From Syntrophobacterales bacterium (GTDB lineage Bacteria; Desulfobacterota; Desulfobaccia; Desulfobaccales; 0-14-0-80-60-11): DNA of 64,000 nucleotides. The translations under genes and the position numbers were made by a program. Location: NCBI GenBank assembly GCA_037388025.1, contig JARRKO010000034.1:32336-96335 (forward strand). Reading direction: 5' to 3'. A model generated the notes under the pieces. The model was not told the DNA's origin and did no database searches. It was given only the letters and a program-made list of their open reading frames with translations. Shown one piece after another: positions 22,101 to 45,859 of this stretch. How positions within the stretch are numbered: position 1 is the first letter of the stretch; every line of letters starts with the position of its first letter.

Positions 22101-25100
22101 CGCAGCCCTCCATGCCGCGCAAAAGCTGAGGCTTCCCCACGGGGTGGAAGCCTTTGTGCCGCGTAACCTGAAGGAGATTTTTACGGCCGCGCGCACAGGC
22201 GGTCCCCGGGAATTTTCTTTTGACCTGGACCTCAAGGGGGCCATCTACGCGGTCACCCTGCACCTGCCCCATGATTTGCCCACGGCGCGTCTTTACGCCC
22301 TGGACATCACCGATCGCACCCGGGCAGAGGAGGCCCTGCGGGAGAGCGAAGGGCGCGAGCGAGCCCGGGCTGCTGAATTGCAGGCACTTCTGGATACGAC
22401 CCCGGGGATTATCCTCTTGGCCCACGACCCCGAGGGCCGGGTGATCACCGGTAACCGGGCTGCTTATGAACTTATGCGCCGCACGCCCGACAGCAATCTA
22501 TCCAAATCCGCTTCGGCAGGAGAAAGGCCGGAAAACTTCCGGACCATGCAGAACGGCCGGGAGATTACCGGAGCAGAATTGCCGGTGCAGCGGGCCGCCA
22601 CCGGGGAGACGGTGCGAGATTACGATATTGACTTGGTCTTTGATGACGGCACGGTCCACACCATTTTGGGGGACGCCGTACCGTTGCTGGACGAAGCCGG
22701 GCAGCCCCGGGGCGCGGTGGCGGCATTCCTGGATATTACCGAGCGCAAGCGGACCGAAGAGGCCCTGATCCGGAGTCAGGCGGAACTTGAAGCCATCTTC
22801 CACTCCATGTCTGACGGCGTCATCTTTGCCGACCTTCAGCGCCGTATCGTCCTGGTAAACCCTGCGGCCGAAGCCTTGTTCGGATATGCCTTGGAGGAAA
22901 TGCAGGGCCGCACCACGGAGTTTATCTACGCCTCTCCGGCGGATTACGAAGAGCAGGGCCGCCGCCGCTATCACACCAAGCCGGATCATCCCCTCCCTGT
23001 TTATGAAATGGAATACCGGCGCAAGGATGGCAGTGTCTTCTCGGCAGAAACCAAGGGGAGTCAGGTCAAGGATGACCAGGGCCGGGTTATCGGGTTTGTC
23101 AGCATCCACCGGGACATCACCGAGCGCAAGCGGGCAGAAGAGGAACTGGCCCGGCAAAGGGAACTCTTGCAGGCAATCATCGACAACATCCCGGTGATGC
23201 TGACATTTTATGATCCCAACCTGAAGATCTTTCGTTTCAATAAGGAATCGCGTCGGGTGTTGGGCTGGTCGGAAGAAGACTTGGCCGCTATGGATGACCC
23301 CCTGGAGTTTTTTTACCCCAACCCCGAACAACGGGAGCAGGTGCGAGAGTACATGCATTATCTGGTACCGGGGTGGCGGGATTTTCAGGCGACCGCCAGA
23401 GATGGCAGCCTGGTGGACAGTACCTGGGCCAACATCCGCCTCACGGACGATACTCACATCGGCATTGGCGTGGACATCCGGGAGCGGAAACGGGCCGAAG
23501 AAGCCCTGCAGCGGCAAGATAAACTCACCCAAGGCATCAACCTTGTCCTGCATGAGGCCCTGACCTGCGAGACCCAGGAGGATCTGGGCCGCACCTGTCT
23601 GGCCGTGGCCGAAGAGCTCTCCGGCAGCAGGTTCGGTTTTATCGGGCAGATAAACGAGGCCGGTCTCCTGGACGATATCGCTATTAGTGACCCGGGCTGG
23701 GAGGCCTGCACTGTACCGGGGTCGGAAGAAATGGTTTTGCCTAAAGGTTGGCATTTTCACGGTATTTATGGGCAGGTCATAAGAGAAGGGCAGTCCCTGA
23801 TTGCCAACGATCCCGCGGCTCATCCCGACAGCATCGGCCTCCCCGAAGGCCATCCCCCTTTGACGGCTTTCCTGGGCGTGCCCTTGAAACAGGGGGACAA
23901 GACCATCGGCATGGTGGGCCTGGGAAATAAACCTGGGGGCTACACCCCGGCTGATCAGGACGCGGTGGAGACTCTGTCCCTAGCTATGGTGGAAGCGTTA
24001 CAGCGCCAACGGAGCGAGGAGGCCCTGCGCCGGGCTCATGCTGACCTGGAAGAACGGGTGGCGGAGCGTACCGCGGCCCTAAGCCAGGCCAATGAGCAGC
24101 TGCTCGGCGAGATCAAGGAGCGCCAGGAGATGGAGGTCAGGCTCCGGGAAAGTGAGGCCCGCTTCGCGGCCTTCATGGAACACCTGCCGGGATTGGCGGT
24201 GATGCGGGACATGGAGGGGCGTTACCTGTTTGCCAACCAGGCCTGGGAAAAGATGCTGAATCTTGCCCCCGGGGCTTGGGCGGGGAAGACCCCAACACAA
24301 ATCTGGCCCCGCAAGCAGGCCAAAATCTTCCAGAAGCTGGATTTCCAGGTGATTAGCTCCGGGGAGCCCATGGAACAGGTGGAAAAGCTGAAACTGGCCG
24401 ACGGCCGCCATTACCTCCTGACCCACCGGTTTCCCATCAATGACGCCTCGGGCCTTCCCTTCATGGTGGGTACCATAGCCATTGACGTCACGGCGCGCCA
24501 GCAGGCCGAGGAAGACCTGAAGATATCAGAAAAAAGGTTGCGTTACCTTGCAGAACAGTTACTCACCGCCCAAGAGGATGAACGCCGGCGCCTGGCCTCG
24601 GAACTGCACGATGAGCTTGGCCACGCCTTGTTGGCTTTTAGACTCTCTCTGAGTTCCATCGCCAAGGACCTGCTGCCCGAGCAGGAAAGCATCAGGGAGG
24701 AGCTCCTGGAACTGCAGGCGGTTATCAGTGAAGTTTTAGGAGAGATTCGCCGCCTGTATCATGATTTGAGCCCGGGGGACGTAGAGGATTTGGGCCTCAC
24801 CAAGGCCCTGCAATCCCTGGTGGAGAACTTTGCCAGCCATCAGGGACACATAACCTGGCAGGTGGACCTGCCGGAGCTCGACCGGCTCTTCTCCCTGCCG
24901 GTGCAGACCATTATTTACCGCATCGTCCAGGAGGCCTTGACCAATATCGGCAAGCACGCTCAAGCTCAGCAGGTGAGCATTACCGCGGCCAAGAAGGGGG
25001 CAAAGGTGCACTTTGCCATTCAGGACAACGGTCAGGGCTTTGACGTGGCCCGGGTTATAAGGATGCCGGGCCGCGGCGTGGGGCTGGCGGCCATGGAGGA

Positions 25101-25224
25101 GCGGTTGAACATGGTGGGCGGCACTTTCGAAATCCACAGCCGGGAGCAGGAAGGCACCAGGCTCAGGTTCACCATACCCACCTTACCGGAAAGAGAAAAG
25201 CCATGGAGGCGTTTCATCACATGA
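19144..25224 (+). CDS. Giant cytoplasmic hybrid-less sensor histidine kinase: about 12 PAS/PAC modules, one GAF-like module, HisKA_3 and HATPase_c (2026 aa)
   Basis: PAS modules recur, each closed by a D(I/V)(T/S)ER(K/R)xAEE linker. A GAF-like segment lies around 23520-23960 (FLGVPLKQGDKTIGMVGLGNK). The H-box is ELHDELGHALLAF, the N-box QEALTNIGKHA and the G-boxes DNGQGF and GRGVGLAAMEERL. There is no TM segment. Confidence 0.93.
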   Translation: MKSDAKNSSPDFTDLRRQAEERLKKKATHPEELTPVEAARLIHELQVHQIELELQNEELRQAQVQLAESRDKYTDLYDFAPVGYLTLGKAGKILEANLTAATMLGLERSKLLGLFFPHFLVDTDRRVFRQLLNNGSDLRERRGEFHLQDGNGKARVLLLDILLLQDAEGREQHRVALTDITELKTAQEELRLHKEELEELVAERTTELLEVNEELREANDNLRALFEAAPLAIGVFDAEGKVVSVNPASERLFGWSQEEFKGHLPLSMPTKAPEEARAPLERALQGRSFTGTEVKQQRKDGALIAVSLSAAPLHDAAGRFRGFIGLAEDITERKRAEEAVRTQARVLESMAEAVTVTDSRGHIQYSNPAFDAVFGYEPGELLGRHTNILNFYPPEENRRVVQEILRQLQASGVWSGEFLNRRKDGRSFFTSARISALEVGGEKLFISVQEDITERRQREEMLRRQSELLDLAEDAILVWDMVGRVTYWNRGAEDLYGWPREEAMGQVVHRLLATEFPEPLVDIETRLLEQGRWEGESIHTTRDGSRLIAKSRWSLKRDDKGRPLAILEINNDITARRQAEEALRKSEWRFHRLVEANIIGMAVCDEETIVEANDAFLQMLGYTRGEMQPGELNWVELTPHEYLSLDAQALYELRTTGVHTPFEKAFVRQDGSQVAVMVGGALLEEDPFMWVSFVLDVSERKQLEAELRQSEARFRAIFSNASIGIATTDLKGRFQQFNAPVIKGLGYTPTELRGMSFFEVTHPEDLDKDAGLFAELAAGRRERYQVEKRYIRKDGRVLWGRLHVSLARNLAGEPEFAVSLVEDITARQEAQAALAESEARYRSLVEMSPDAIVVHAKGRIIFANQAGLTLFGAASPEDILGQHIFDLVHPDFLDIVKRRVKRGYAGEPADLREIKLRRFDGQFTDVESAARPITYQGQPAVQVVVRDISERKQAEEEIRRLANFPLLNPNPVIEVDEAGTVVYANPAALHAAQKLRLPHGVEAFVPRNLKEIFTAARTGGPREFSFDLDLKGAIYAVTLHLPHDLPTARLYALDITDRTRAEEALRESEGRERARAAELQALLDTTPGIILLAHDPEGRVITGNRAAYELMRRTPDSNLSKSASAGERPENFRTMQNGREITGAELPVQRAATGETVRDYDIDLVFDDGTVHTILGDAVPLLDEAGQPRGAVAAFLDITERKRTEEALIRSQAELEAIFHSMSDGVIFADLQRRIVLVNPAAEALFGYALEEMQGRTTEFIYASPADYEEQGRRRYHTKPDHPLPVYEMEYRRKDGSVFSAETKGSQVKDDQGRVIGFVSIHRDITERKRAEEELARQRELLQAIIDNIPVMLTFYDPNLKIFRFNKESRRVLGWSEEDLAAMDDPLEFFYPNPEQREQVREYMHYLVPGWRDFQATARDGSLVDSTWANIRLTDDTHIGIGVDIRERKRAEEALQRQDKLTQGINLVLHEALTCETQEDLGRTCLAVAEELSGSRFGFIGQINEAGLLDDIAISDPGWEACTVPGSEEMVLPKGWHFHGIYGQVIREGQSLIANDPAAHPDSIGLPEGHPPLTAFLGVPLKQGDKTIGMVGLGNKPGGYTPADQDAVETLSLAMVEALQRQRSEEALRRAHADLEERVAERTAALSQANEQLLGEIKERQEMEVRLRESEARFAAFMEHLPGLAVMRDMEGRYLFANQAWEKMLNLAPGAWAGKTPTQIWPRKQAKIFQKLDFQVISSGEPMEQVEKLKLADGRHYLLTHRFPINDASGLPFMVGTIAIDVTARQQAEEDLKISEKRLRYLAEQLLTAQEDERRRLASELHDELGHALLAFRLSLSSIAKDLLPEQESIREELLELQAVISEVLGEIRRLYHDLSPGDVEDLGLTKALQSLVENFASHQGHITWQVDLPELDRLFSLPVQTIIYRIVQEALTNIGKHAQAQQVSITAAKKGAKVHFAIQDNGQGFDVARVIRMPGRGVGLAAMEERLNMVGGTFEIHSREQEGTRLRFTIPTLPEREKPWRRFIT

Positions 25225-30668: not shown

Positions 30669-30852
30669 AAATCACCCCACTTATTTTGAGATGCAATGGG
30701 TCCTATCCAAAAGAAAACATATCTAATGCAATCACTAAATGAAGCTTTTTAAAATAAATGTTCCCAACCGATATCAAATCTATTATGAAATTGATTGAAA
30801 ATTTGGGCTATTATTAATCACTAAAAGATTCAATGTCATGGAGGAAATTTCC

Positions 30853-32352
30853 ATGCCAATGAGCCGCTTAGACAGACCCTTAAAAGTTTTTGTGTCCTCG
30901 ACCTCGGAGGACCTTACAGATTATCGTGCCGTTGCGCGACTTGCCATTTGCGATATGAAATGGGCTCCAGACATGATGGAACACTGGACCACCAGACCAG
31001 AATCGACGCGCGAGGCTTGTTTCGATGAGCTTAGTAAATGTGACCTGATGATCCTGATGGTTGCTTTTCGGCGCGGTTGGGTGCCCACAAAAGATCAGGG
31101 GGGCGATGGGCAGAGTTCCATCACCGCTCTGGAATATAAATACGCTCAGGAAAACAACAAGCCAGTGCTGGTGTTTCTGGCAAAAGATAACTGGCCTGGA
31201 AATCTGTGGGAAAGAGACCCATCCGCCATGGAGTGGATTGAGAATTTTCGTAATGAATTGAACCAAATTGCCAAATTTTTTGAATACGAGAAACCCGCAG
31301 GGGATGAAAAGGAAAGTTTTCCAGTTTTCCGTGCCGAAATACGCAGGGCCCTTTCTGATTATCTCCTCCGCCTTATCCAAGATTCCGGTGAGCTCGAGGA
31401 GCCTGAACCTACCTTACAGCCTGAAGATTTTGATCAATTTGAGGGGGCATGCCAGGCGCTTCAGATGGGGGGATGCATCCCCTTTTTGGGACCTGGAATT
31501 TACGGTGAGGAAGGACCTCTTTCTTCGTGCTCTATAATAGAAGCCCTGGCTGATAAGAAATGTCTTGAAAGGACCCTGGCCACCGCTGCTGAGTACCGAG
31601 AACGCCGTCTTAAGTTCCGGGATTCGTTCTTAATTCGGTTGGAAAAGATTATCAATGAACAGGGCATGCAAACCAAGGAGCCAGTAGTTTTTGAACTTTT
31701 GTTAAAATCTAAACCAGCGCTTATCGTTAGCGCCACCGAAGATCTTTTGTTGGAACAAAGGTTGGAGAAAGCAAATCATCCTCTTTTGATCTTTTGCCAT
31801 GTTATTCGGTCATTAAACGGTAAGCATGACGGAAAAATTATTATGTTTCGTGGTCCTAATGATCCCAACCCTAAATTTCATGATGCAGATAGTATTGCTC
31901 TGAGTTCCACTAAAGACACTTTTATCATTTACAAGCCTTTGGGATCGCCGTTGTTGAACCGTTTAATTAATGACGATCTGAAGGATGATGCGATCGATAC
32001 GGTAGTTATGACTGAAACCGATCACCTGATTCTATTAAGTCGACTGGAAAATCAAAGCACTAGAGTTCCCAATGCTTTTAGCCGTTATTTCCAGAGGTTA
32101 CCCCTGATCTTCCTTGGCTATCCCATGGATGTCTGGCATTACCGTCTTGTTGGTCAAGTTTTCAGGAACAGCGGTGAAACCAGTATGAAACCCATGAGGC
32201 TAGCTGTGCGGCGAACATTTTCTCTCATGGAAAAATTATCTTGGCGAAATCTCGAAGTGGAACTGCTACCCATGGATCCCGATGAGTTAGCCAGAAAAAT
32301 TCTCGATGAACTCAATGAACTTGCGGGGAAAAAAGTGCAGGAGACACCATGA
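30853..32352 (+). CDS. DUF4062 (TIR-like) N-terminal domain fused to a SIR2_2-like C-terminal domain
   Basis: The N-terminus KVFVSSTSEDLTDYRAVARLAI...CDLMILMVAFRRG...SITALEYKYAQENNKPVLVFL follows the DUF4062 pattern. The C-terminus CIPFLGPGIYGEEGPL...LIVSATEDLLLEQ...LPLIFLGYPMDVWHY follows the SIR2_2-like pattern. The ORF opens at 30838, and the ATG at 30853 has GGAGG 8 nt upstream. The stop overlaps the next start (ATGA). Confidence 0.75.
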   Translation: MPMSRLDRPLKVFVSSTSEDLTDYRAVARLAICDMKWAPDMMEHWTTRPESTREACFDELSKCDLMILMVAFRRGWVPTKDQGGDGQSSITALEYKYAQENNKPVLVFLAKDNWPGNLWERDPSAMEWIENFRNELNQIAKFFEYEKPAGDEKESFPVFRAEIRRALSDYLLRLIQDSGELEEPEPTLQPEDFDQFEGACQALQMGGCIPFLGPGIYGEEGPLSSCSIIEALADKKCLERTLATAAEYRERRLKFRDSFLIRLEKIINEQGMQTKEPVVFELLLKSKPALIVSATEDLLLEQRLEKANHPLLIFCHVIRSLNGKHDGKIIMFRGPNDPNPKFHDADSIALSSTKDTFIIYKPLGSPLLNRLINDDLKDDAIDTVVMTETDHLILLSRLENQSTRVPNAFSRYFQRLPLIFLGYPMDVWHYRLVGQVFRNSGETSMKPMRLAVRRTFSLMEKLSWRNLEVELLPMDPDELARKILDELNELAGKKVQETP

Positions 32353-35300
32353 ACACCCAAGATAACCTTAATTCTGCGGTACCCCTGCCGGATACTCCTT
32401 TTGTGGGCGCAAGGCCCTTTGAGCAAAAAGAGCAAGCCATTTTCTTTGGCCGGGATCGGGATGCTGTTCTCCTTCGGGACAAAATATTCTCTTCCAAGCT
32501 CACTGTTTTCTATGGTCTATCGGGTGTCGGCAAATCATCAATCCTGCGAACCCTCCTGGTTCCTTACTTGGAAGATCAGGAAGCCTTTGTCATCACTTTC
32601 GATGGCTGGAGCAGCAACGACCCCGTCATGGCCATCAAGACCGAGCTAATCAAAGAGGCTATCAGGCTAAGGATTCCGGATCCAGGCGCAGGCGCTCCGA
32701 CACTTGCTGACCTTATTCGTCTCCTGATCAGCGTTGATGGGCGGACCGTGGTGCTCATCCTGGACCAGTTCGAGGAGTTCTTTACCCATGGCCACCGCCC
32801 AGCTCTCTTGCGCCGGGAACTTGGGTCTTTGGTGCGCAGCCCCAACCTTGATGTCAGGATTCTCCTGTCCTTACGGGAGGAGCACCTCGCCTCCCTCGAG
32901 CCTTTCAGGTCTGAGATCGTAAACCTGTTTCAATCTACTTATCGACTCGAGCTCATGAACTCCGAAGGTGGTCGGGAAGCTATTGAGGGACCTCTAAAGG
33001 TGTTCAAGGTGGAATATGAACCAAAACTAGTAGATACTTTAATTAACGATCTGCGGCTGGAACAGCATTCGACCAAGACCGATCGTCCGACTGCCACCGA
33101 CGACGCACCTATAGACCTGCCGATGCTGCAACTGGTCTGTGACGAGCTGTGGAAGGAAGCAACGAAGGAAAAAGCGAAAAAGCCGGGGTCAATAAAATTT
33201 ACCCTGGATTTATATAAAAGTCTGGGAGAACGACAAGGCATCCTGGAGATCTATCTCCAGCGTGTCATGCCGCACCACTGGCGCCAGAAGTATCTTACTG
33301 CCCGGCTCATGGAGCATCTCGCCCCGCCGGAAGGGTACAAAGTTGCCCTTTCTGCAGACTACTTGGCTCACCGTATCAAGACCCCCCGGTCCAAGGTAAA
33401 TTATGAACTCGAACGTCTCAGCGATGACGAAGTGCGTGTTCTACAAAGCCGAACATATGAAGGCGACGTTGTCCGCTACGAGCTCAGACATGACAGGTAT
33501 ATTCCCATCATCGCGAACTGGCGCGACCAGGTCTTAAGGAACATTAGACGCTGGCGCAATGCGATCAGTACAGCTGTCATCCTGATCTTAATGGTTTTCG
33601 GCGTCTTATTGGTGGACGGATATATTCTTCACAGGAACACAGTGGGGGTCATGACCAGGGAAGACCTATCCTCTCAAGGTGGGGACAGAGAAGAGCTTAT
33701 GGCGAGAAAGTTTGATCAAGTCGCCAATTATCTCATCTGGACCAGAACTTGGTATAATCCCTATCATTTAGTGTGGGAAAATCGCTTCGATTACTTGAAG
33801 AAAATCCTTATTAAATACGGACCTAAGTTGCCTAAGAATTATGGCATCGAGCGTTCAGGGGTGGAGTTCATTACCTTGCCCTCTGAACAGGAGGATTGGC
33901 CTCTGACGGTGAGCTACTCGAGCTCCCGGGGGTTAAATCCCTTTATCTTTACCCAAATGTGGCAATCCATTGCTACAACCCTGTTAAATAAAAAATGGGG
34001 TATCCCGGTCCCCTTGAAGCTTCGACTGATTAAAGAGGATATTCCCAAGGAGCAGATCAAATTAACCAGGCCCCATATCAAAGAACCGAAATATTTTAAT
34101 AACATTCCGGCTTACGAGGATAAAGCATTCATTAGATGCAACCCCAAAAATCTTCTGGGTACGGCTCAAATTTTTTTCGAGAGATTCAGAGGCGAGTGGA
34201 TAAAAATCGATCCAAAAGAGACTAAAGAGGAGAAGAATGAGGAAGAATCCGGAGAATCAATCTGGGTAATCCCCCGCTGGTCCCTGCCGGCCTGGAAAGC
34301 TTCAGGCGAAACCATTTATGACGGCAGCGCTCTGCCGGCCTATATTCTGGTATACAGGCTGGTTTCCCATCTTGAATTATTGCTGACTCCCGACGCCATG
34401 GAGATTCTCCTAGAAAAAGTCGCCAAAATGTATCCTGAGACAGTGGCTGAGGCCCGTGCTGTCCGTGGGGACCAACTCTTGGAGGATATCCAGGAAATTA
34501 ATTACCGAATGATTTTAGAGGACAGGGACTTGCTCAACCAGTTACCTACTATCCTGGACGCCCTGGCAAACTACCCGGAAAAATCATCGAAGGAAATTGC
34601 TAATGAGGTCTCTTCAGACATTGATTCTTTCCGGGTTTCTTTGCAGTCAGGACTCAGAGGCCCCCACAAGACCAAACCTCGGCCTCCTGAAGTTAAATTT
34701 CCTGAAGCCTATCGAGAGGCCGGCAACTGGCTCCCGAATTTTAAATCCAAAGTTCGAGTCTATCATGGAGTAGACCTGCTCCCTAAGTGGTTCACGAATC
34801 AAGGAGATTTTAAGCCTGAAGTCCTTACGCAACTTAAAAAAATCCAGGACAGAGTCTTTAAACAGTTCGGAGTTCCTATGCCAGCCGGGAAACTTATAAT
34901 GCTTCCTAACCTCACCGGCAACACCCTGCGCGTGGAGCTCATGAATCAGACAACCCAACATTCCCATGCTGACGTATTCCAGGTTGACCAGGAGGATGCC
35001 CTGAAGCAGCTCGCCGCGGCTTTGACCTTCCGGCTGGATTCCTACCGGATTCATTTCTTGAACGCTGAGCAGGTCCGCAAGATTCTGGATGACCTCAATC
35101 CGGCTGTGAGGTCGTGGTTACAAACCCGTTATTCTCTCACCGATCTGAAACTGCTTCTGCGAACGGTAATAAACCCCTCTGCAGAAGAGCTCAAGTATCG
35201 GAAGAAAATGTTCGCTAAGGGAGTCCTGGATCAGACTCGTGGGATTCCAGACGGCAGCACCATCCGTCAGCCGGGCTGGCTCCTGGCCTCCCTCGTCTTC

Positions 35301-37481
35301 TGGTCTCAGGTTGACGATTACCTTTATCTCCGGGATATGGCCGCAGACCTGCGCAAGACCCAACACGCCAGGCTCAATGCCAAGACAGTGTCCCCCACAG
35401 GGGAGGTCGCCAAACTTATAATCAAGGGCGTCAGGTGTCTGGATCAGGGGCACATTGATGAGGCGGAGAAGGCCTTCTCCGAAGCCATACAATCTGACCG
35501 GAAATCTGCAGTCTCCAGTTTCCTGGCCTTTTATCCCCAGGAGCTTCAGCAGCAACTCATCCAAGCCCATAAAGAATTGTTTGCCGGCCTTCTGGCCCCC
35601 TCCCAAGAGCTAAAGCAATTGAGAAAATTATTATTTCGTGACCTCAAGTTGGCAGAGTTGAAGGCCAATTTAAACGACTCCTTGATCGACCTGGTTTTCG
35701 ACAAGAACGAGGATATGCGAGCTCGCCGCCGCATTATGATGTTATTTCTTGACGTTTCTGAGTTTACCCGAGACCAATGGCTCAAACTGGTTGACTATTC
35801 TCTGGCTAAATTCGGTTCGCCGCTCAAGTGGCCCGCCAACGAAACCGCGTTTTTTGGTACACTGCTCTTAATGAGACAGGACCAGCTTCTCGATCTGCCG
35901 GGTTCCACCGGGCCCAAATTTACTAAATATGGTTTGGTTTTATTGAAGATTGCCCAGCGACGACTTGACAATCAAGATACCTTTCAGCAGACAAGCAAGG
36001 TTCTAAAGATTTTTAAAAGACCAGGAAACCTGGAGTTAAGCCGCCCAGAAAGAATCGAGCTGGAGGATTTGGTGGACCAAAAGGGCCTTGATGATAAAAC
36101 AGCCCGGTGCCTCCGCCTGTGTTTGTTAGCCGCCTATCCGGAGAGCTATCGCCAGGATAAACGCACCCTTACCGATAAGATCGTCAAGCTGCATGGCACC
36201 CCGGACCGGTGGCCGGCGGAGGAGGCCGCCTGGTTCGGCCTCAGGCTCTTGTCAGAGTTCGACCCCCTGACTGATGACCAGAAAATCCCGGAAAAAGGCA
36301 TGGATTTTCTGACCCGAGCCATGCCCCAACTCCGCGGGGCAGAAGCTAAAAATCTGTCGACTAAAATTTTGACAATTTGTGGAACGCGCGGTCCCAACCA
36401 GTGGTGTTGGAACCTCGTGCCTGGTCTGGCGAAAAGCCGCAAGGACCCATTTTTATACTTTAATATTGGCTTGTTCCTGGCCGAGCGCGAGGTTCCGGCC
36501 GATCTGGAGTATGCCTGCACCCTGGCAGAGCGGGCCAAAAAAGGATTTAGCAATTTAAACCTTCCTCCGAAAAAAAGAGATGCTTTAATAGATTACGCTG
36601 ATTTCCTGTGGGCCAGAGCTACCTTGGGACTGGCCATCTTAGGTGCTGAGTTGGACCGCGAAAAGGTGGAAAAGGTGGAATACATCTTTGCCCGCCTCTT
36701 GAAATCAGAGAATCTGGGGAGCTCAGCACATGAGCAAATGGCCAGGCTGAGATTGTGGGAAAAACGCCCCCAGGAAGCCGCTGAAATCATCGACCTGGCG
36801 ATCCAGAAATGGCCCAACGAGCAAGAACCTTACGGTTTGAAACTGAAAATGCTGCTTGAGGCTGGTGATGACGAGGGCGCGGCCAAAGTTGCCCACAAGG
36901 CAGGGACCTTGGTCGAGAGGGTCGACGGAAAAATTACCTACGAATCTAGCGGCTTTGCCTTCGTCTGGGCCCTGGGGCTGCTTATGACCCATACCGACCC
37001 CTGGGAACGGTCCGCCCGTGATTTTCTGCAAACCGATCATCCTTACGTGCCTTATATAGCCATGCTGCTGTATGCGCATTTGACCGGCAAGGATAAGGAA
37101 GAGGCCCTGAAGGTGATCCAACAGCACTGGGCCCGGGTCCGGCCGGAGACCTGGGAGGAGCGACTGCGACAAAGAGATCAAACCGTCTGGCGGGAGATGC
37201 TTATCGGTTACTACCTCAATAAGGTCCCAGCTGAGAGGATTCTCGGTCCTCTGGAGGACGACAGAAAGTTTGACAAATCAGAGCTCAGCAAGGTTCCCAT
37301 GCCTCGAAAGGGTATGCTCTGTGAAGCTTACTTTTATGATGCTTTGCTTGCCAAAGCCCAGGGGAAGAGAAGTCGAATGAAAGCCAGTTTACAAAAAGCT
37401 GCGGACTCAAATTACCAGAGTTACTTCGAGTATGGCATGGCCAAGTATCTGCTGGCTCAACTGAATCAGAAGCAACCCTAA
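32349..37481 (+). CDS. 1710-aa STAND-type P-loop NTPase with one TM helix, two FlhA/FHIPEP-C-like modules and a C-terminal TPR-like region
   Basis: AGGAG Shine-Dalgarno. The lead-in is PFVGARPFEQKEQAIFFGRDRD. Walker A GLSGVGKSS lies at 32514-32540 and Walker B is VVLILDQFEEFF. The TM helix AISTAVILILMVFGVLLVDGYIL (about 33561-33630) follows RNIRRWRN. The C-terminus is TPR-like (RLRLWEKRPQEAAEIIDLAIQKWPNEQEPYGLKLKMLLEAGDDEGA). Confidence 0.85.
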   Translation: MNTQDNLNSAVPLPDTPFVGARPFEQKEQAIFFGRDRDAVLLRDKIFSSKLTVFYGLSGVGKSSILRTLLVPYLEDQEAFVITFDGWSSNDPVMAIKTELIKEAIRLRIPDPGAGAPTLADLIRLLISVDGRTVVLILDQFEEFFTHGHRPALLRRELGSLVRSPNLDVRILLSLREEHLASLEPFRSEIVNLFQSTYRLELMNSEGGREAIEGPLKVFKVEYEPKLVDTLINDLRLEQHSTKTDRPTATDDAPIDLPMLQLVCDELWKEATKEKAKKPGSIKFTLDLYKSLGERQGILEIYLQRVMPHHWRQKYLTARLMEHLAPPEGYKVALSADYLAHRIKTPRSKVNYELERLSDDEVRVLQSRTYEGDVVRYELRHDRYIPIIANWRDQVLRNIRRWRNAISTAVILILMVFGVLLVDGYILHRNTVGVMTREDLSSQGGDREELMARKFDQVANYLIWTRTWYNPYHLVWENRFDYLKKILIKYGPKLPKNYGIERSGVEFITLPSEQEDWPLTVSYSSSRGLNPFIFTQMWQSIATTLLNKKWGIPVPLKLRLIKEDIPKEQIKLTRPHIKEPKYFNNIPAYEDKAFIRCNPKNLLGTAQIFFERFRGEWIKIDPKETKEEKNEEESGESIWVIPRWSLPAWKASGETIYDGSALPAYILVYRLVSHLELLLTPDAMEILLEKVAKMYPETVAEARAVRGDQLLEDIQEINYRMILEDRDLLNQLPTILDALANYPEKSSKEIANEVSSDIDSFRVSLQSGLRGPHKTKPRPPEVKFPEAYREAGNWLPNFKSKVRVYHGVDLLPKWFTNQGDFKPEVLTQLKKIQDRVFKQFGVPMPAGKLIMLPNLTGNTLRVELMNQTTQHSHADVFQVDQEDALKQLAAALTFRLDSYRIHFLNAEQVRKILDDLNPAVRSWLQTRYSLTDLKLLLRTVINPSAEELKYRKKMFAKGVLDQTRGIPDGSTIRQPGWLLASLVFWSQVDDYLYLRDMAADLRKTQHARLNAKTVSPTGEVAKLIIKGVRCLDQGHIDEAEKAFSEAIQSDRKSAVSSFLAFYPQELQQQLIQAHKELFAGLLAPSQELKQLRKLLFRDLKLAELKANLNDSLIDLVFDKNEDMRARRRIMMLFLDVSEFTRDQWLKLVDYSLAKFGSPLKWPANETAFFGTLLLMRQDQLLDLPGSTGPKFTKYGLVLLKIAQRRLDNQDTFQQTSKVLKIFKRPGNLELSRPERIELEDLVDQKGLDDKTARCLRLCLLAAYPESYRQDKRTLTDKIVKLHGTPDRWPAEEAAWFGLRLLSEFDPLTDDQKIPEKGMDFLTRAMPQLRGAEAKNLSTKILTICGTRGPNQWCWNLVPGLAKSRKDPFLYFNIGLFLAEREVPADLEYACTLAERAKKGFSNLNLPPKKRDALIDYADFLWARATLGLAILGAELDREKVEKVEYIFARLLKSENLGSSAHEQMARLRLWEKRPQEAAEIIDLAIQKWPNEQEPYGLKLKMLLEAGDDEGAAKVAHKAGTLVERVDGKITYESSGFAFVWALGLLMTHTDPWERSARDFLQTDHPYVPYIAMLLYAHLTGKDKEEALKVIQQHWARVRPETWEERLRQRDQTVWREMLIGYYLNKVPAERILGPLEDDRKFDKSELSKVPMPRKGMLCEAYFYDALLAKAQGKRSRMKASLQKAADSNYQSYFEYGMAKYLLAQLNQKQP

Positions 37482-37990: not shown

Positions 37991-40229
37991 TTATCCGCTT
38001 CGTTTTCTCCGCCAGCCCAGGAGTCCCAGGCCCAAAAGTCCCGAGCCCAGGAGGAACACGGAAGGGGGCACCGGGGTGGGGTCAGGTTTGAGCTGGCCCA
38101 GGCCCCCCGCAAAGTCGTAGGTCTTGCCCAAAAGGTAAGCGTTGATCAGCAAGTCAGGATCGTAATAGATATTTATCTCCTCATCGTCGTCATTGAAGAT
38201 GTTATACACCATCTTGGTGAACCAGTTCACCTTGGCGCCGATCAAGCCCCCCACATACTGAGCCGTGCCCTCGTTACTGTCGTTGCCATCAAAGAGGTGC
38301 ACGGTTTGTCCGAGGATAATCAGGGTGCCCCATTCAAAGCCGTTGGTGCCCGAGGGGCCTTTGTCCTCCCCGGGGATATAAAAGTTGTGACTCTTGTCAG
38401 CCCCCGTGACGAATTTCAGGGTAGCCGCGGCGGTGTCCCAGGCGGAGGCATTAATGCTCATATTGTTGAAATCATTTTTGATTTTGAACACATCCTGGGA
38501 GTGCCCCACCAGGTATCCTGTTTGGATAACGGGGTCCGGGACTGTTAGGTCGGTGAAGGTCTGGGTGGCATGATCGCTGATATAGGCGCCCTTGTTGGTG
38601 AAGGTGCCGTTCCAGGTGACGATGGCCTTGGTGGTGTTGACGGTGCCGTTTGACGGTGCCGTAATTCTCCACGTCGCCGGTCACCGTGGTGATGGTGTTC
38701 ATGACGTTGAAGGTGTCATTGGCGTCTATATCGATGGTTTTGGCGGACAGGATGCCGCCATTGAGGTTGTAAGTGCCAGTCCCGCCGAGCGGCGAGAGGG
38801 TCAGGGAGTTGGTGACTATATTGGCGCCGCCATTCTGGTTAAAGACGCCGGTGCCCACTGGCCCGATCATCTCGTCGTTAGCCTTGAGGGTCCCGCGGTG
38901 GAGATTGTAGGTGCCGCTGCTGCCAAATTGAGCCGCCAGGGTGAGGATACCGGCCACCGTGTGGGTGCCGCCGGTTTGGTTGAAGACGCCGGTGCCGTTA
39001 TAGCCGATAAACTCGTCCCCACTAACCGAGAGGCTGCCGTCCTTTGACAAGTTATAGGTGCCGCTGCCGGTGGCCTCATTGCCCAGGGTGAGGTCAAGGC
39101 CTACCGTATGGGTGCCGCCGCTCTGATTGAAGGTGCCGCTGCCGGAGTTGCCGATATATTCATTACCGGCCACCGAAAGACTGCCGCCCTTCAGGTTGTA
39201 GGTGCCGCTGCCGGTGGGTCTATAAAAATAGCCCAGGAAAAGATTTTTGGTGCTAACCGTATGAGTGCCGCCGCTCTGGTTGAAGATGCCGCTGCCGAAG
39301 CTGCCGATATATTCATTAAAGTCAGTAACCACTAAATTGCCGGACACTAGATTGTAGGTGCCGAGGGCATCTCGAACACTTCCAAGTTCGAGACCTTTTA
39401 CGGTGTTGCTCCCTCCGGTCTGGTTGAAGGTACCGGTGCCGATACTTTCGCCCTCAGCCTGGAGGGAGCCGCCTTTCAGATTATAGGTACCGATGCCGCC
39501 AAAATCATATCCCACGTAGAGAAGACCTGAGGCCGTATGGGTACCGCCGAATTGGTTGAAGGTGCCGGTGCCGGAGTAGCCGATATATTCATTACCGGCC
39601 AGCGGACCGGCCACCGAAAGGCTGCCGCCACTCAGGTTATAGGTGCTGTTAATACCACCAAGAAAAAGGAATTGGGTTATCGTATTGGTGCCGCCGCTCT
39701 GATTGAAGGTGCCGGCGCCCTGGCTACCTATAATTTCATTGGAGGCCAAGAGGCTGCCGCTGCCGCTGAGATTGTAGGTGCCTTTACCGGTGGGGTTATA
39801 ACCGAGGATAAGTTGGCTACTTCTAGGGTTGGTATTTACCGTATTGCTGCCGCCGCTCTGGTCGTAGACCCCCTTGCCGTCCAGGCCGATAGTCTCATTA
39901 TCGGCGGTCAGGGCGTTGCCGGACTGTTGCAAGGTGATGTTGCCCCAGCCGGTGGCATCAACGGTAAGGGCGGACAACATCGGATTGGATGAGGTATTGT
40001 AAATGACAGTCTTAGGGAAGAAACCACTCTGGGTGACGAAGACGTCATCTCCGGCCCCCGGCTCCCCTGACGGGCTCCAGTTGCTGGCCGTAGTCCACAG
40101 ATTATTGAAGGGGGTGCCGACCCACTGTTTGGTGACGGCCAGGGCCGGCTGGGCCATAAGGACCAGTAGCAAGGCGGCGGTGGCAATGAGAGTCCATAAG
40201 CATCTGGTCTTGGTGCTATCCGGTTGCAT
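37991..40229 (-). pseudogene. Repeat-rich secreted PEP-CTERM protein, split by a 13-bp tandem duplication (frameshift)
   Basis: Signal peptide MQPDSTKTRCLWTLIATAALLLVLMAQPALA, with the ATG at 40229 and an AAGGAG Shine-Dalgarno. There are about eight G(T/S)G(T/V)FNQxGG(T/S)(N/H)T(V/I)...GTYNLxGGSL repeats. The C-terminal sorting signal is PVPPSVFLLGSGLLGLGLLGWRRKRSG. The reading frame switches at 38637-38662 between ORFs 38472-40286 and 37991-38509. Confidence 0.85.
38637..38662 (-). repeat. Perfect 13-bp tandem duplication (TTGACGGTGCCGT x2 on the + strand) causing the frameshift
   Basis: Bases 38637-38649 equal 38650-38662. Removing one unit joins ...TVTGDVENYGTV to NTTKAIVTWNGTFTNKGAYISDH... 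in one frame. Confidence 0.9.
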
Positions 40230-40439
40230 GAGCGGGTTCTCCTTTTCCCCATAGGACAGCTGCTGGCCTGAAATAAGAAACACCAATCCGCTAAAAAATA
40301 AAGCAATTTTTGTGCCTTTATTAACCTCTTGAAATTCTTAGAGTCGCCCAAAGGAATGGTTCGGAGGATGAAACATTGCGTTTCATTCTCTGAACTTTTT
40401 ACACCCTTATGAATAGGGTGCAAGTTTAGGTTGAGTCTA

Positions 40440-40733: not shown

Positions 40734-41321
40734 TTATTTATTCTTCAGGAAGAAGATGGTGCGCCAGCGATGATCTCCCGCCAGGGCATGCAGTATGACT
40801 GCACCTACATGCACGGCCAAAAATACGGGAACCAGCCATTCTCCGAACTCGTGCAGTTCTTTTACCAGGTGCATGGCGCCATGGGCTTTCTGTCCTGGTA
40901 TCAGGAAGAGGAACATCGACAACCCGGTAACCGTCATCCAGGTGAAAACCGCCAGCCCAAAGGACTCCCAGAGGGCCGCCAATCCCTGGTGGGGCTCACG
41001 CTCAGGCAACTTCAGGGTGAGCAGGCTGCGAATATCTTCCAGGATCATCTTCACCCGTTCTGAATTATACGGTACCCAGTTGGCGAAGCGGGCCGGCTCA
41101 GGGCCACAGAAGCCGTGCAATAAGCGCGCTGCCACAAAAACGGCCGTACCCAAACCCAGCATCTTGTGGACCATGAAACCCAGGTGCAAGACCTTTTTGT
41201 AGTCCCCGGCCCAGTATCCGGTCAGCCAGGCCAGCACTCCAAAGATCATCAGACCGAAATGAAGGAGTATGGTAAAGCTATCCAACTCTTCTGACGGTTT
41301 CAAATCGGCAGGCTTATCCAT
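40734..41321 (-). CDS. Cytochrome b561 / Ni-Fe-hydrogenase b-type cytochrome-like membrane protein
   Basis: Four TM helices with conserved His residues (ILLHFGLMIFG, FMVHKMLG, AMHLVKELHEFGEW, FLAVHVGAVILHAL), the pattern of the PF01292-type family. Confidence 0.75.
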   Translation of the reverse strand: MDKPADLKPSEELDSFTILLHFGLMIFGVLAWLTGYWAGDYKKVLHLGFMVHKMLGLGTAVFVAARLLHGFCGPEPARFANWVPYNSERVKMILEDIRSLLTLKLPEREPHQGLAALWESFGLAVFTWMTVTGLSMFLFLIPGQKAHGAMHLVKELHEFGEWLVPVFLAVHVGAVILHALAGDHRWRTIFFLKNK

Positions 41322-41399
41322 ATGACATCACTCCCGTTTAAGCTTCTGGATGAGTCCCGGGCAGGCAAGAGCTGCACCGTGCCTGCCCGGTGCAGGCGC

Positions 41400-42200
41400 C
41401 TAAAAGGCCTGGTCCGGTTTCCACACCTTCCAGACGTTGCCCACCAGGTCCGGACCCGGTTTCAGCGTCGGCTTGCCCGGCTGCCAGCCTGAAGGCATGG
41501 CCTCCCCGGTCTTGCGGACATGCTGAAACGCCTTGACCTGGCGGATGAGTTCCGCCACATTACGGCCCACCGACGGAGTAAGTACCTCCATGGCTTGGAT
41601 AACCCCGTCGGGGTCGATAATAAAGCGGCCGCGCAGGTTGACTCCCGCCGCGTCATCGTACACGCCGTATACCGTGCCGATCTTGCCCCCGGCATCGGCC
41701 AGCATGGGATAGGGCACCCCGCCGGGCACCATCTTAGCCAACTCTTCAGTTTGCCAGATTTTGTGGGCAAAGCGGCTATCCGTGCTGACAGCCATGACTT
41801 CCACGCCCATTTTTTTAAGTTCCGGATACTTAACTGCAACTGCAGTCAATTCAGTGGGTCAGACAAAGGTGAAGTCGCCGGGATAAAAGCAGAGCACCGT
41901 CCATTTGCCTCGGTTGTCCGAAAGCTTCAGATTTTTAAAAGCACCATTGACAAAGGCGTTGGCTTCGAAATCCGGCGCGACCTTACCCACCCGGGCCCTA
42001 ACCGGAGCAGACTGGGACTGGCTGGCGCTGGCTGCAGATTGAGCCTTGGCCTGGGGCGCCAGCGGACCTTTGGCCGGGGCTACACACGACGAATCCACGT
42101 CCCTCTTCTTTCCTTTGTCCTTTTCCACGGCCGCCGCCGGCAGAGCTATGAACAGCAGGGCGGCGGCCATCATGAGCCAGATACAGAACCTTCTGAGCAC
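41400..42200 (-). CDS. Exported peroxiredoxin (AhpC/Prx1 type) with selenocysteine (UGA at 41859-41861) at the peroxidatic position
   Basis: ORFs 41859-42233 and 41400-41849 are in the same frame, separated only by TGA. The joined sequence reads [17 protein letters not shown], where the consensus is FYPxDFTFVCPTE. A SECIS-like hairpin lies 9 nt downstream. The probable start is the GTG at 42200 after GAGGAGGG, giving the signal peptide [23 protein letters not shown]. Confidence 0.85.
41830..41849 (-). promoter_or_regulatory. SECIS-like hairpin downstream of the in-frame UGA
   Basis: The minus-strand RNA UUGACUGCA-GU-UGCAGUUAA forms a 9-bp stem (one G-U pair) with G and U at the apex. The stem starts 10 nt after the UGA, so the apical loop is about 19-20 nt from the UGA. 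Confidence 0.65.
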
Positions 42201-42320
42201 AACTTTTCCCTCCTCGAATCTCAATGATAGCACGAAAATCTTTCCTGAATGGATTTTCCGCTATTAAGGCCAGCAATAAACGATAATCTAACCTTAGGGG
42301 GGTTAGGAAAACGGGTTGTT

Positions 42321-42350
42321 AAAGAATAAAGGCCAGGAGATATCCTGGCC
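42321..42350 (-). terminator. Rho-independent terminator of the small secreted protein gene 42413-42700
   Basis: GGCCAGGA (42331-42338) pairs with TCCTGGCC (42343-42350). On the minus strand it is followed by UUUAUUCUUU. Confidence 0.7.
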
Positions 42351-42412
42351 TTGTTAGTTAGCCATGCCTGGCTATTGCACGCTGTTGAGTTTGCTAAACT
42401 GAAGGACAAAGG

Positions 42413-42700
42413 CTATGGTAGGCAGCTACCATCTTTAAGCTGTTGCCGAATCTGGGTCTGGAGAGGATTTAAGACGCGGGTCTGGCTTTGCGGACAATTA
42501 ATGATGTTGTAGAAGTTGCCAGGATTATTGAATTGAAATCCTCCCGTACCTCTCAGCTCTTTGGCTTCCTGATCGGTGATCTTTTGCAGGGTGCTCAGTT
42601 GCAAATCTTTAGAGGGTTGAGGTACTTCCGTAGCCGCGACCAGGGCAACACTCCCCAGGACCAGCGACAACACCATGATCACAGTTGTTACTTTTTTCAT
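42413..42700 (-). CDS. Small secreted protein P1 (95 aa): signal peptide, conserved leader ending in RGTG, variable C-terminus
   Basis: MKKVTTVIMVLSLVLGSVALVAA signal peptide. The conserved block EVPQPSK..LS..QKITDQEAKELRGTGG is shared with 46417-46716. It has its own terminator. Confidence 0.75.
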   Translation of the reverse strand: MKKVTTVIMVLSLVLGSVALVAATEVPQPSKDLQLSTLQKITDQEAKELRGTGGFQFNNPGNFYNIINCPQSQTRVLNPLQTQIRQQLKDGSCLP

Positions 42701-42842: not shown

Positions 42843-43475
42843 TCAGCTTATCAGTCCATATTTAACGGCATAATAGGTAAACTCGGAGTTATTTTTCATA
42901 CCCATTTTGCTTAAAGCCCGTACCCGATAGGTACTGACGGTTTTGACACTCAGGCACATTTCGTCGGCAATTTCTTTGACCGTTTTTCCTGAGGCAATCA
43001 TAAGCATCACCTGATATTCCCGGTCGGAAAGGGTTTCATGACCCGGTTTATCTGCATCCACTTCGAGATGGGAGGCAAGTTTTTCAGCCAGGGAGGAACT
43101 GATGTATTTCCCGCCCTGAGAGACTCTGCGTATGGCTGCGATCAGTTCTTCGGGAGCGCTCTCTTTGGTCAGATAACCGGAAGCCCCCGCCTTCAAAGCC
43201 CGCACCGCATATTGTTCTTCAGGATAAATACTTAACACCAGTACCGGCAGTTTCGGTTTTTCCCTCTTGACCTCCTTGAGCGTTTCCAGGCCGTCTTTGC
43301 CGGGCATGGCCAGGTCCAACAACACCATGTCCCAGTCTTCCCGGCGGACGTGTTCTATCACTTCATGCCCGTTCGTCGCTTCCCCCGCCGCCACCAGGTC
43401 TTTGGTATCAGCCAGAATCTGCTTGATCCCTTCCCGGACAATGGCATGGTCATCCGATATGAGTATTCTGATCAC
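42843..43475 (-). CDS. NarL/FixJ-family response regulator (REC plus LuxR-type HTH)
   Basis: REC motifs (ILISDDH, DMVLLDLAMPG, SGYLTK) and a C-terminal LuxR HTH (LSDREYQVMLMIASGKTVKEIADEMCLSVKTVSTYR). GTG start overlapping the kinase gene. Confidence 0.92.
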   Translation of the reverse strand: MIRILISDDHAIVREGIKQILADTKDLVAAGEATNGHEVIEHVRREDWDMVLLDLAMPGKDGLETLKEVKREKPKLPVLVLSIYPEEQYAVRALKAGASGYLTKESAPEELIAAIRRVSQGGKYISSSLAEKLASHLEVDADKPGHETLSDREYQVMLMIASGKTVKEIADEMCLSVKTVSTYRVRALSKMGMKNNSEFTYYAVKYGLIS

Positions 43476-44949
43476 CGATGTTCTCCCTTGTTTCGAGGGG
43501 CAGGCTCACATAAACGATGGTGCCTTGATCGGGAGCGCCGCTGATCCTCAGTTCCCCCGAAGCGGCAAGTTGTTCGGCAGTAATGCCCTCGCCATTGTCC
43601 CGGATTTCCATTTCCACATTATCAGGATTTTCTTCGAGAATAACCTCAACCTGAGTGGCGTGGGCATGGCGGGCGATATTGGTCAAGGCCTCCTGAAAGA
43701 TGCGGAACAGCGCAATGGAACGGGACTGATCCAGAATGATATCCTCGGGCTCTGACCGGATATCGCATAGGAGCCCCGCCCGGCTGCAAAATTCCTGAGC
43801 TTGCCATTCAATGGCGGCCGTCAGGCCCAGATCATCCAGTAAGCCCGGCCGCAGTTCCGAGGAAATCCGGCGCACGGCTTGCACCGTGGTATCAATGATC
43901 CTCGACATTGCTTTGATTTTGTCCATCAGCACCTGATGATCCGTGGACAATCTCGACCCCAGCCAGTGAACGTCCATCTTCAAGGCGGTCAGGGCCTGTC
44001 CCAGCTCATCATGAATCTCCCGGGCAATACGGCTTCTCTCTTCTTCCCTGATGTGCTGTAAATGCAAGGCCAGGTCGCGCAACTGGTCCTGAGATTGCTT
44101 TAGTTCTTCCTCTGCCCGCTTCCGGTCGGTGATTTCCTGTTGGAGCTGTTCATTTGCACTCGCTAATGCGACGGTGCGGGCCTCTACCAACACCTCAAGA
44201 TGTTTGCGGTGCCTGCTTAAGTCTTCAGCCATCTTATTGAAAGAATCTGCCAGGGTTCCGATTTCATCATTTCTCTTAATCATCAACGGAGAAACCATTT
44301 CTCCGTTAGCGACCAGTTTCATGGCATCAGTAATACGTTGTATCGGCCAGGAGATAAAGGTGGCTAAGAAATAGGCAACTATGCCCCCGATGATGATAGT
44401 CACCAAACCGATTAAAATAATTTGTCGCTGAGCCGTGGCAATTTCCTTGGCAACGGCGGAATAGGAGTATCCCAAAAAAACTGTGCCCAGTCGCGCTCCA
44501 GCAACTTCAATGGGAGCACAGATATTATAATAAACGTCCCCTTTTTTTATGAGATGCGCATGAGAGTAACCCGGTACATAAGGGCTGCTTTTTCCGGGGT
44601 GTACGATATTTTGATAAGTTTTACCGATCTGACTCAAATCGCTATGCATCACCACCTTATCAGCAGGATCTACTATGCTGACATAGCGGACATAATCCTG
44701 CTTCATGGTGTGATTGACGTAGCGACGCAGAGTAGCCCAATCATGACTTAATAAAGGTCTCTCGGCAAATTTCGCCAGATCATTGGCCAGAGCCAGCCCC
44801 CTTTTACGCAGCTCATCTTCCAGAGTGCCTTTTTCCCGTAGGGTGGTGATAACCCCGGTGAATACGACCACAAGGATGACCAGACCTTCAATCAATAGGG
44901 TCAGCTTGGCTCTCAATCTAAACTTAAACCATGGAAATGATGAATGCAT
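43450..44949 (-). CDS. Membrane sensor histidine kinase (periplasmic Cache/PDC-like domain, HAMP, HisKA_3, HATPase_c)
   Basis: Two TM helices flank a periplasmic domain. HAMP is ISWPIQRITDAMKLVANGEM, the H-box is EIHDELGQALTAL and the N-box is QEALTNIARHA. The segment after DNGEGI looks shorter than usual, with no obvious G2 box. Confidence 0.88.
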   Translation of the reverse strand: MHSSFPWFKFRLRAKLTLLIEGLVILVVVFTGVITTLREKGTLEDELRKRGLALANDLAKFAERPLLSHDWATLRRYVNHTMKQDYVRYVSIVDPADKVVMHSDLSQIGKTYQNIVHPGKSSPYVPGYSHAHLIKKGDVYYNICAPIEVAGARLGTVFLGYSYSAVAKEIATAQRQIILIGLVTIIIGGIVAYFLATFISWPIQRITDAMKLVANGEMVSPLMIKRNDEIGTLADSFNKMAEDLSRHRKHLEVLVEARTVALASANEQLQQEITDRKRAEEELKQSQDQLRDLALHLQHIREEERSRIAREIHDELGQALTALKMDVHWLGSRLSTDHQVLMDKIKAMSRIIDTTVQAVRRISSELRPGLLDDLGLTAAIEWQAQEFCSRAGLLCDIRSEPEDIILDQSRSIALFRIFQEALTNIARHAHATQVEVILEENPDNVEMEIRDNGEGITAEQLAASGELRISGAPDQGTIVYVSLPLETRENIGDQNTHIG

Positions 44950-44998
44950 AAGTGTCGAATTTCCTGAAAAGTGGTTTGTTTAATCGTTGCTATTTGGC

Positions 44999-45859
44999 CT
45001 ACTTGCTGCTCATCAACATCCTTATCAAGCCAAAGTCCCCATCAGAATATACCCTGAATCCTCCCAATTCAGTCGGATATAATATTTTCATGTCATCAGG
45101 ATTATGCCTATCAAGATTCAGTAATGCTTGTCTTATTTTTATAATAGTTTCTTTTTCAGTACCTTTACGGGCACCAAAAACTTTCATCGGTACATCTTTG
45201 GTCTTCGCAATAACTATAATCTGACTAGAATCTACCCCCAGTTCCTTTTGTTTGTCCTCATGCTCTCCCGCGAAATGGTCGCATACCACTCCAGCATCAA
45301 CAGCTTTTAGGTACACATTAAAAGCTATGTCTTCACAACAACCTCCGTTAAGATAAGCTTTTAAATCCTTCTCAATATCTATCCCGTTATCTTCCAATAA
45401 TAATTTGCCTGCGAGCCACTTACTGGCAGAAAACTTGGGACCGAACATGACAGTTTTTTTCTTCAAATCTGTTACCTTATGTATGCCGCTATCTTTCCTA
45501 ACAATAATCACCCCGGATTGAGTAGTGCCTCCCTCCAGGTTAAGGGTTCTGAGTAGAGAATCCTTATCAAATAAATTTGACAGTTTAAGAAAAGTGTGGG
45601 GGTCCTGCAGGGCGAAGTCTATTTCCCCATTATGGAGTGAGGTTTCGAACTTGGTGAGATTCTCAGGGACTACCAGCCTGATGGGCAATCCGGTCTTCTG
45701 GGTTAGATAGGTAACTAAGGGGTGGAATTTCTTGAAAGTCATCACGATATCTGTGCAGGGAAGGACAGCAATATTTATAGGTTTCTTTTGAACTTCAGCT
45801 GATATCGAAGTGACTTGTAGAAACAAGATAATTAACAGCATGCCAAACATTCTAATCAT
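44999..45859 (-). CDS. PhnD-like periplasmic substrate-binding protein (phosphonate/phosphate ABC-type SBP fold) associated with the kinase
   Basis: Signal peptide, then INIAVLPCTDIVMTFKKFHPLVTYL..., FALQDPHTFL and MFGPKFSASKWLAGKLLL, the pattern of PhnD-type SBPs. No ABC permease or ATPase is adjacent. Confidence 0.7.
   Translation of the reverse strand: MIRMFGMLLIILFLQVTSISAEVQKKPINIAVLPCTDIVMTFKKFHPLVTYLTQKTGLPIRLVVPENLTKFETSLHNGEIDFALQDPHTFLKLSNLFDKDSLLRTLNLEGGTTQSGVIIVRKDSGIHKVTDLKKKTVMFGPKFSASKWLAGKLLLEDNGIDIEKDLKAYLNGGCCEDIAFNVYLKAVDAGVVCDHFAGEHEDKQKELGVDSSQIIVIAKTKDVPMKVFGARKGTEKETIIKIRQALLNLDRHNPDDMKILYPTELGGFRVYSDGDFGLIRMLMSSK

Follow-up and report, generated by a model that had tools for sequence, protein, structure and literature searches.

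A predicted selenocysteine peroxiredoxin of the PrxU family in a Syntrophobacterales bacterium, with a putative signal peptide and a candidate resolving cysteine in its N-terminal arm

Is a peroxiredoxin gene that is interrupted by a single in-frame stop codon broken, or is the stop read as an amino acid? The question is raised by a locus in a stretch of 64,000 nucleotides (nt) of contig JARRKO010000034.1 (positions 32,336 to 96,335) from the Syntrophobacterales bacterium assembly GCA_037388025.1, hereafter the window. On its minus strand two open reading frames (ORFs), 42233..41859 and 41849..41400, share one frame, and a TGA codon is the sole interruption between them. A preliminary description of the stretch had reported this arrangement and proposed a selenocysteine (Sec) peroxiredoxin; both the reading of the sequence and the joined translation bear the arrangement out. 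We consider, with a probability of roughly 0.93, that the locus represents an intact selenoperoxiredoxin gene of the PrxU type, prxU, the UGA of which would be decoded as Sec. PrxU is a selenoprotein family already known since 2001, to which the window gene adds a further member.

The stop codon lies in the motif PGDFTFV-TGA-PTE, at the position of the peroxidatic Cys of AhpC/Prx1-type peroxiredoxins. Pfam analysis of the joined protein recovered AhpC-TSA (E 5e-37), Redoxin and 1-cysPrx_C. The closest solved structure is that of human Prx2 (E 2e-49, ~50% identity), in the alignment with which the stop falls on the peroxidatic Cys of FTFVCPTE. When queried with Cys in place of Sec, the protein scored 377.2 bits against the NCBIfam equivalog model NF040737 (‘peroxi_PrxU’), the cut-off of which is 270; residues 48-274 matched profile positions 2-232 of 233, so that 231/233 positions were covered. 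The gene was assigned to PrxU because this score stands well above the curated cut-off. An AlphaFold (AF2) model, made for the Cys orthologue P0038 and not for the window protein itself, had a predicted local distance difference test score (pLDDT) of 87 and adopted the typical 2-Cys peroxiredoxin fold (TM-score 0.90 and E 1.5e-23 against human Prx2, 7kj1). The proposal that UGA replaces the catalytic Cys is thus supported by the Prx2 alignment, the NF040737 score and the conservation of the codon in homologues.

To describe this conservation, homologues were collected in two sets. Set 1 came from a scan in which each bacterial species was represented by one genome, and comprises the 80 nearest loci, with proteins 74-85% identical; 81 copies from 80 GTDB species genomes, together with the window gene, make 82. 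They belong to Desulfomonilaceae/Syntrophobacterales, other delta-proteobacterial metagenome-assembled genomes (MAGs), Dehalococcoidia, Anaerolineae, Actinomycetota, Ignavibacteria, Nitrospirota, Zixibacteria and others. TGA occupies the Sec codon in 82/82 copies, none of which has any further interruption. Set 2 was a scan of metagenome contigs deliberately seeded with a Cys-form homologue. Its 80 loci held 79 recognisable copies, again with TGA in 79/79, and the scan returned UGA forms only and no Cys forms. Stop codons at varying positions in orthologues, which the preliminary description had named as the sign of a split or decayed gene, were not encountered; the same UGA recurs throughout. 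One deltaproteobacterial MAG contig (L037) was found to carry two PrxU paralogues, at positions 1676 and 7018 and thus ~5 kb apart, both with the TGA and with the hairpin described below.

Bacterial Sec insertion sequence (SECIS) elements are expected as stem-loops ~10 nt past the UGA, with an apical G/U 16-37 nt from it. In the window the hairpin UUGACUGC-AGUU-GCAGUUAA begins 9 nt past the UGA, with a centroid energy of -9.2 kcal/mol, and its loop G (41840) and U (41839) fall on nt 19 and 20 downstream of the UGA, within the expected range. The preliminary description had recognised both the hairpin and the distance of its G and U; the stem of 9 base pairs (bp) closed by a 2-nt loop that it drew is sterically unlikely, and 8 bp with a tetraloop are predicted instead. 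The layout resembles the fdhF-type SECIS of Escherichia coli, which likewise lies within the coding sequence right after the UGA and presents apical G and U ~19-20 nt away. The loop of the fdhF element is GGUC, which the R-G-U-Y loop of the window resembles. Unlike the fdhF type, the window stem is short (7-8 bp) and has no evident bulged U.

The argument for a functional hairpin comes from covariation. The region around the UGA aligns without gaps in the 82 sequences. Of its column pairs, 24-33 is never unpaired and reads GC in 69 copies, UA in six, AU in four, CG in one and GU in one; the loop-closing pair 27-30 occurs as AU 67 times and as GC 13 times, and pair 21-36 occurs in five pair types. 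The covarying columns coincide with the third, four-fold degenerate bases of Thr/Ser/Ala, Ala and Val codons, and since changes there are synonymous, coding does not explain the correlation along the stem. The covariation score was 0.186, against 0.074 +/- 0.007 in shuffles, of which 0/500 reached 0.186; all slid controls scored lower. Set 2 replicated the pattern, with pair 24-33 as GC56/AU10/UA6/CG5, pair 27-30 as AU52/GC25/CG2, and GU in the loop of 78/79 copies. These data support the identification of the hairpin as a bacterial SECIS element.

Three observations weigh against Sec decoding at this locus. Taken alone, the hairpin is thermodynamically ordinary, the 71-nt segment giving z ~0 against shuffles. 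The three Cys-form genes examined retain a partial hairpin, and n=3 yields no clean contrast between Sec and Cys forms. Finally, selA, selB, selD and tRNA-Sec were not found in the 64-kb window by ARAGORN, Rfam, or Pfam on ~35 ORFs. On the first point, the significance of the hairpin stems from its conservation and covariation in 160 homologues, far beyond chance, and not from its stability. On the last, we infer that the host organism would possess the Sec-decoding trait.

The missing machinery, together with the fact that gene callers split prxU into two ORFs, could suit a different reading, in which a Cys-peroxiredoxin gene in decay has acquired the TGA by nonsense mutation, or in which the codon is an error of sequencing or assembly. 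We regard this as hardly credible, given that the codon is invariant in both sets and across many phyla, in the company of no other stops or frameshifts, that both halves of the protein are strongly conserved (75-85% identity), and that the hairpin covaries. Both forms of this reading are further opposed by four independent metagenome contigs that carry the same protein sequence in the same gene order.

A second rival arises from the databases. Among the 110 closest database proteins, 67 have Trp printed at the Sec column (for example P0001-P0008 and P0103) and 42 have a genuine Cys; other entries are fragments of 136 or 149 amino acids (aa) that begin just past the UGA (P0076, P0092, P0098, P0099, P0113, P0115 and P0120). 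The Trp results from gene callers that resort to code 4 and so misread the UGA. Within the window, TGA is the ordinary terminator of 13 of 32 confident other genes, and for this reason the genetic code is the standard one, with recoding confined to prxU; a scan of the window for other long coding frames bridged by TGA, or for further selenoprotein candidates, gave none that was convincing. An alternative genetic code with UGA as Trp or Gly, although seemingly favoured by the many FTFV-W-PTE entries, is therefore practically negligible, as these TGA-terminated genes and the lack of other TGA-bridged frames oppose it, a peroxidatic Trp would leave the enzyme inactive, the entries in question stem from short metagenome contigs on which callers default to code 4, and to our knowledge the host lineages (Desulfomonilaceae/Syntrophobacterales, Anaerolineae, Dehalococcoidia and others) are not recoded.

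The window protein can be compared with two kinds of relatives. The first is PrxU of Eubacterium acidaminophilum, a Sec-containing peroxiredoxin reportedly described by Sohling et al. in 2001 in Biol Chem 382:979. Both proteins have Sec for the peroxidatic Cys in FTFV-U-PTE and lack the C-terminal resolving Cys; the window protein differs in adding a predicted signal peptide, which only 18/82 of its nearest homologues share. The length of the E. acidaminophilum protein, which we take to be ~203 aa, would make it a short form that does without the N-terminal Cys arm discussed below. The second kind comprises typical 2-Cys peroxiredoxins (human Prx2, 5IJT/7KJ1; Salmonella AhpC), with which PrxU has in common the fold, the active-site motif and the degree of identity to Prx2 given above. 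It departs from them in its Sec, in its N-terminal extension, and in the Cys of GEVCP, which is Met in the window and Thr in the family. The P0038 model has the Prx1-type fold; of the features of typical 2-Cys enzymes, only the C-terminal resolving Cys is missing.

That Sec peroxiredoxins were already known, as the preliminary description stated, is confirmed by the curated PrxU family and by a 2026 review, which counts peroxiredoxin (TxxU) among the prokaryotic selenoprotein families with experimental verification and cites Sohling et al. 2001 for it (PMC13188914). As such, prxU adds little discovery, because Sec peroxiredoxins have been biochemically established for that long and a curated model exists. 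Its value for annotation is greater: standard callers split the gene or print Trp, and a selenoprotein that is very widespread among anaerobes of the environment is systematically mis-annotated.

Where does the protein begin, and where would it work? The start at 42233 that was first assumed lies in the correct frame, but the GTG at 42200 is likely to be the true start, because it is preceded by GAGGAGGG and because the corresponding codon is ATG in the homologues L112 and L114. The N-terminus that follows has the appearance of a cleavable signal peptide, or possibly of an uncleaved membrane anchor, a feature overlooked by the preliminary description, which had the Sec active site right. Comparable hydrophobic leaders with a small-x-small end are present in 18/82 homologues, all of them delta-proteobacterial-type MAGs, and an equivalent leader was also seen in L108, L112 and L114. 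The remainder of the 82 have no leader and begin directly with M-A-E-x-K-D-x-C. On the strength of the predicted signal peptide, the window PrxU is therefore probably exported and acts in the periplasm or cell envelope. The variants with a signal peptide would imply a selenoprotein peroxidase in this compartment.

The alignment with human Prx2 places Met on the C-terminal resolving Cys, and this Cys is lost family-wide: the column holds Thr in 96 proteins, Ala in five, Ile in three, and Met, Leu and Cys in two each. At the other end of the protein, a motif of the form C-V-x-P-x-x-G-P was found in 79/82 set 1 copies, its Cys 74-79 residues before Sec despite a linker of variable sequence. More distant members have a variant, GC[GA][KR]PTG, at the same place. 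Four loci (L121, L122, L124 and L125) truly lack the N-terminal extension and retain the UGA. The NF040737 profile includes the N-terminal Cys region, its position 2 corresponding to residue 48, and in the P0038 model the segment with this Cys has a pLDDT of 70-75 compared with 57 in its flanks. The N-terminal Cys is a plausible candidate for a resolving residue. The preliminary description had called the protein a 1-Sec enzyme. It was correct in that the C-terminal resolving Cys is absent, and it overlooked the conserved N-terminal Cys; the label ‘1-Sec enzyme’ is unproven because that Cys may plausibly act as the resolving residue.

The following sequence of events can be envisaged. During translation, the UGA would be decoded as Sec while the hairpin (41849..41830), as its anatomy and covariation suggest, offers its R-G-U-Y apical loop to SelB-GTP-Sec-tRNA(Sec) at the approaching ribosome. 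The product would adopt the typical 2-Cys (Prx1/AhpC) fold, and the selenolate in P-x-x-x-T-x-x-U would attack peroxides and become a selenenic acid. From here two routes may lead back. Either the selenenic acid would be reduced directly by a thiol, as ‘1-Sec’ would have it, or the Sec would join the Cys of the N-terminal C-V-x-P-A-K-G-P motif in a selenenylsulfide, which a thioredoxin-like partner would then reduce. To judge from the sequences, direct reduction and an N-terminal Se-S intermediate are about equally likely. The predicted cleavable Sec-type signal peptide, recognised by inspection and by its likeness to the leaders of 18 homologues, would place this chemistry in the periplasm or cell envelope.

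For a true 1-Sec enzyme, in which an external thiol reduces the selenenic acid and the N-terminal Cys is structural (e.g., linking subunits by a disulfide, as Cys51 does in human Prx4) or irrelevant, we would give somewhat less than an even chance. The family-wide loss of the C-terminal resolving Cys is what such an enzyme would show, and the four loci that have no N-terminal extension still carry the UGA. The HMMER alignment moreover runs through the N-terminal arm and places the window Cys on Prx4 Cys51, with a spacing of 73 residues to the peroxidatic residue in Prx4 and of 74-79 in PrxU. The presence of the Cys in nearly all set 1 copies, at a fixed spacing in spite of the variable linker, argues instead that the residue has a function; most members of the family are cytoplasmic, where a structural disulfide would hardly be expected; and the likeness to Prx4 scores nothing when the motif alone is used.

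The likeness to human Prx4 (3TJB, 3TKP, 8EKW) extends to the Prx1-type fold, a signal peptide (a predicted one in the window protein) and an N-terminal extension with a single Cys; in contrast to PrxU, Prx4 keeps its C-terminal resolving Cys and has Cys instead of Sec. The HMMER alignment was rejected as evidence that the N-terminal arm and the N-terminus of Prx4 are homologous: the 62 N-terminal residues have no match in PDB at E <= 10, and a profile of the motif alone scores nothing on the Prx4 segment, with the qualification that part of the Prx4 comparisons, this motif-only test included, used a Prx4 sequence entered by hand. The resemblance is best described as an analogy in layout and spacing.

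A fuller proposal combines these elements. In it, a delta-proteobacterial subset of PrxU is exported to the envelope, and throughout the family a Cys in the flexible N-terminal arm, ~75 residues before Sec, has replaced the C-terminal resolving Cys and forms a Se-S bond with Sec in turnover. As a whole, and judged from sequence, we find this proposal rather unlikely. If true, the N-terminal arm would be a location of the resolving residue that has not been described for Prx1-type enzymes, and one would have to ask which reductant serves a selenoperoxiredoxin outside the cytoplasm. A search of the literature for an exported Sec peroxiredoxin, or for an N-terminal resolving Cys in peroxiredoxins, found nothing specific. 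The N-terminal Cys arm with its fixed spacing and the variants with a signal peptide may both be of interest for redox enzymology.

Could the electrons for an exported PrxU be supplied by the gene next door? A cytochrome b561-family membrane protein is encoded 78 nt downstream of prxU on the same strand, an arrangement kept in contigs of the same species (L081-L084). This would invite a model in which PrxU draws on the quinol pool through b561 and operates as a quinol-linked periplasmic peroxidase. In contig L088 (6001-9035), NrfH-like (Cytochrom_NNT) and cytochrome c552-like genes come directly after the gene for P0067, a Cys-form PrxU that has a signal peptide, and the two contexts together hint at electron transfer in the envelope, without conserved linkage. 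Coupling to b561 nonetheless appears improbable: cytochrome b561 adjoins prxU in 0/80 other genomes, the 18 loci of the signal-peptide type have no conserved neighbour, and we know of no precedent for electron transfer from haem to a peroxiredoxin. More generally, tblastn of the window neighbours against the 80 loci detected no conserved prxU neighbourhood, and all-vs-all clustering of neighbours at the 18 signal-peptide loci detected no conserved neighbour; because of the latter, the reductant of the exported PrxU is not inferable from context.

Upstream of prxU, the terminator-like hairpin listed in Table 1 ends the preceding small ORF, which implies that prxU may have a promoter of its own within about 42233-42328. 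The small ORF had a sub-threshold match to BLB8/JUQZ-1 (E 0.005), and its counterpart at the same place in L085 is 45% identical over 53 aa. The cassette of phosphonate-binding-like protein, sensor kinase and LuxR-type regulator (2010-5083 in L085), together with the small ORF, recurs upstream of prxU only in L085; the cassette might regulate prxU. Between the prxU stop and the b561 gene (41340-41400, minus strand), a pair of G+C-rich inverted repeats that overlap each other, CTGCACCG...CGGTGCAG and CCGGGCAGGCA...TGCCTGCCCGG, was noted by eye right past the stop codon; they have no T-run, and might end or weaken transcription ahead of the b561 gene.

Table 1 Features at and around prxU, with positions counted in the window and given in ascending order
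Feature	Position	Strand	Basis or remark
Cytochrome b561-family membrane protein gene	40734..41321	-	Pfam PF01292, E 9e-18
prxU coding sequence, predicted Sec peroxiredoxin precursor	41400..42200	-	266 codons including Sec, GTG 42200 to TAG 41402..41400
Met codon at the C-terminal resolving Cys position	41496..41498	-	GEAMPSGW vs GEVCPAGW in the human Prx2 alignment
Putative SECIS hairpin, 8-bp stem 41849..41842 with 41837..41830, AGUU loop 41841..41838	41830..41849	-	Predicted fold and covariation
In-frame UGA, predicted Sec codon at the peroxidatic position of P-x-x-x-T-x-x-U	41859..41861	-	Read from sequence, homologue conservation
N-terminal motif C-V-A-P-A-K-G-P-L	42060..42086	-	Cys codon 42086..42084, 75 residues before Sec
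Predicted signal peptide, cleavage before VEK	42129..42200	-	Inspection: basic start, hydrophobic core, A-x-A site
Shine-Dalgarno-like GAGGAGGG	42206..42213	-	A few nt 5' of the GTG start; inference from sequence
Terminator-like hairpin followed by a T-run, end of the upstream 95-aa ORF	42329..42352	-	Consensus scan only
95-aa ORF with signal peptide, between the LuxR regulator and prxU	42413-42700	-	No Pfam family
Cassette upstream of prxU: phosphonate-binding-like periplasmic protein, sCache_3_2/HAMP/HisKA_3 sensor kinase, LuxR-type response regulator	42843-45859	-	Pfam

A few observations concern the window at large. Its sole Rfam match is a fluoride riboswitch (crcB motif, RF01734) at 61454-61525 on the minus strand, with 45.6 bits against a gathering threshold of 34 and E 2e-09. 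ARAGORN called a tRNA-Pro(CGG) at 36204-36280 on the plus strand, inside a 1710-aa nSTAND1 ORF (32349-37481); as Rfam has no tRNA there at the gathering threshold, the call is probably a false positive. This ORF, a STAND NTPase, overlaps a DUF4062 gene (504 aa), and the two (30838-37481, plus strand) form a pair of the type found in candidate defence or signalling systems. A large secreted protein is encoded at 38472-40286 on the minus strand (604 aa in the ORF listing, 741 aa on L081); it consists of repeats like GTGTFNQSGGTHTV and has no Pfam match. Finally, the plus strand at 19144-25224 encodes a sensor histidine kinase of 2026 aa with about eight PAS domains as well as GAF, HisKA_3 and HATPase_c.

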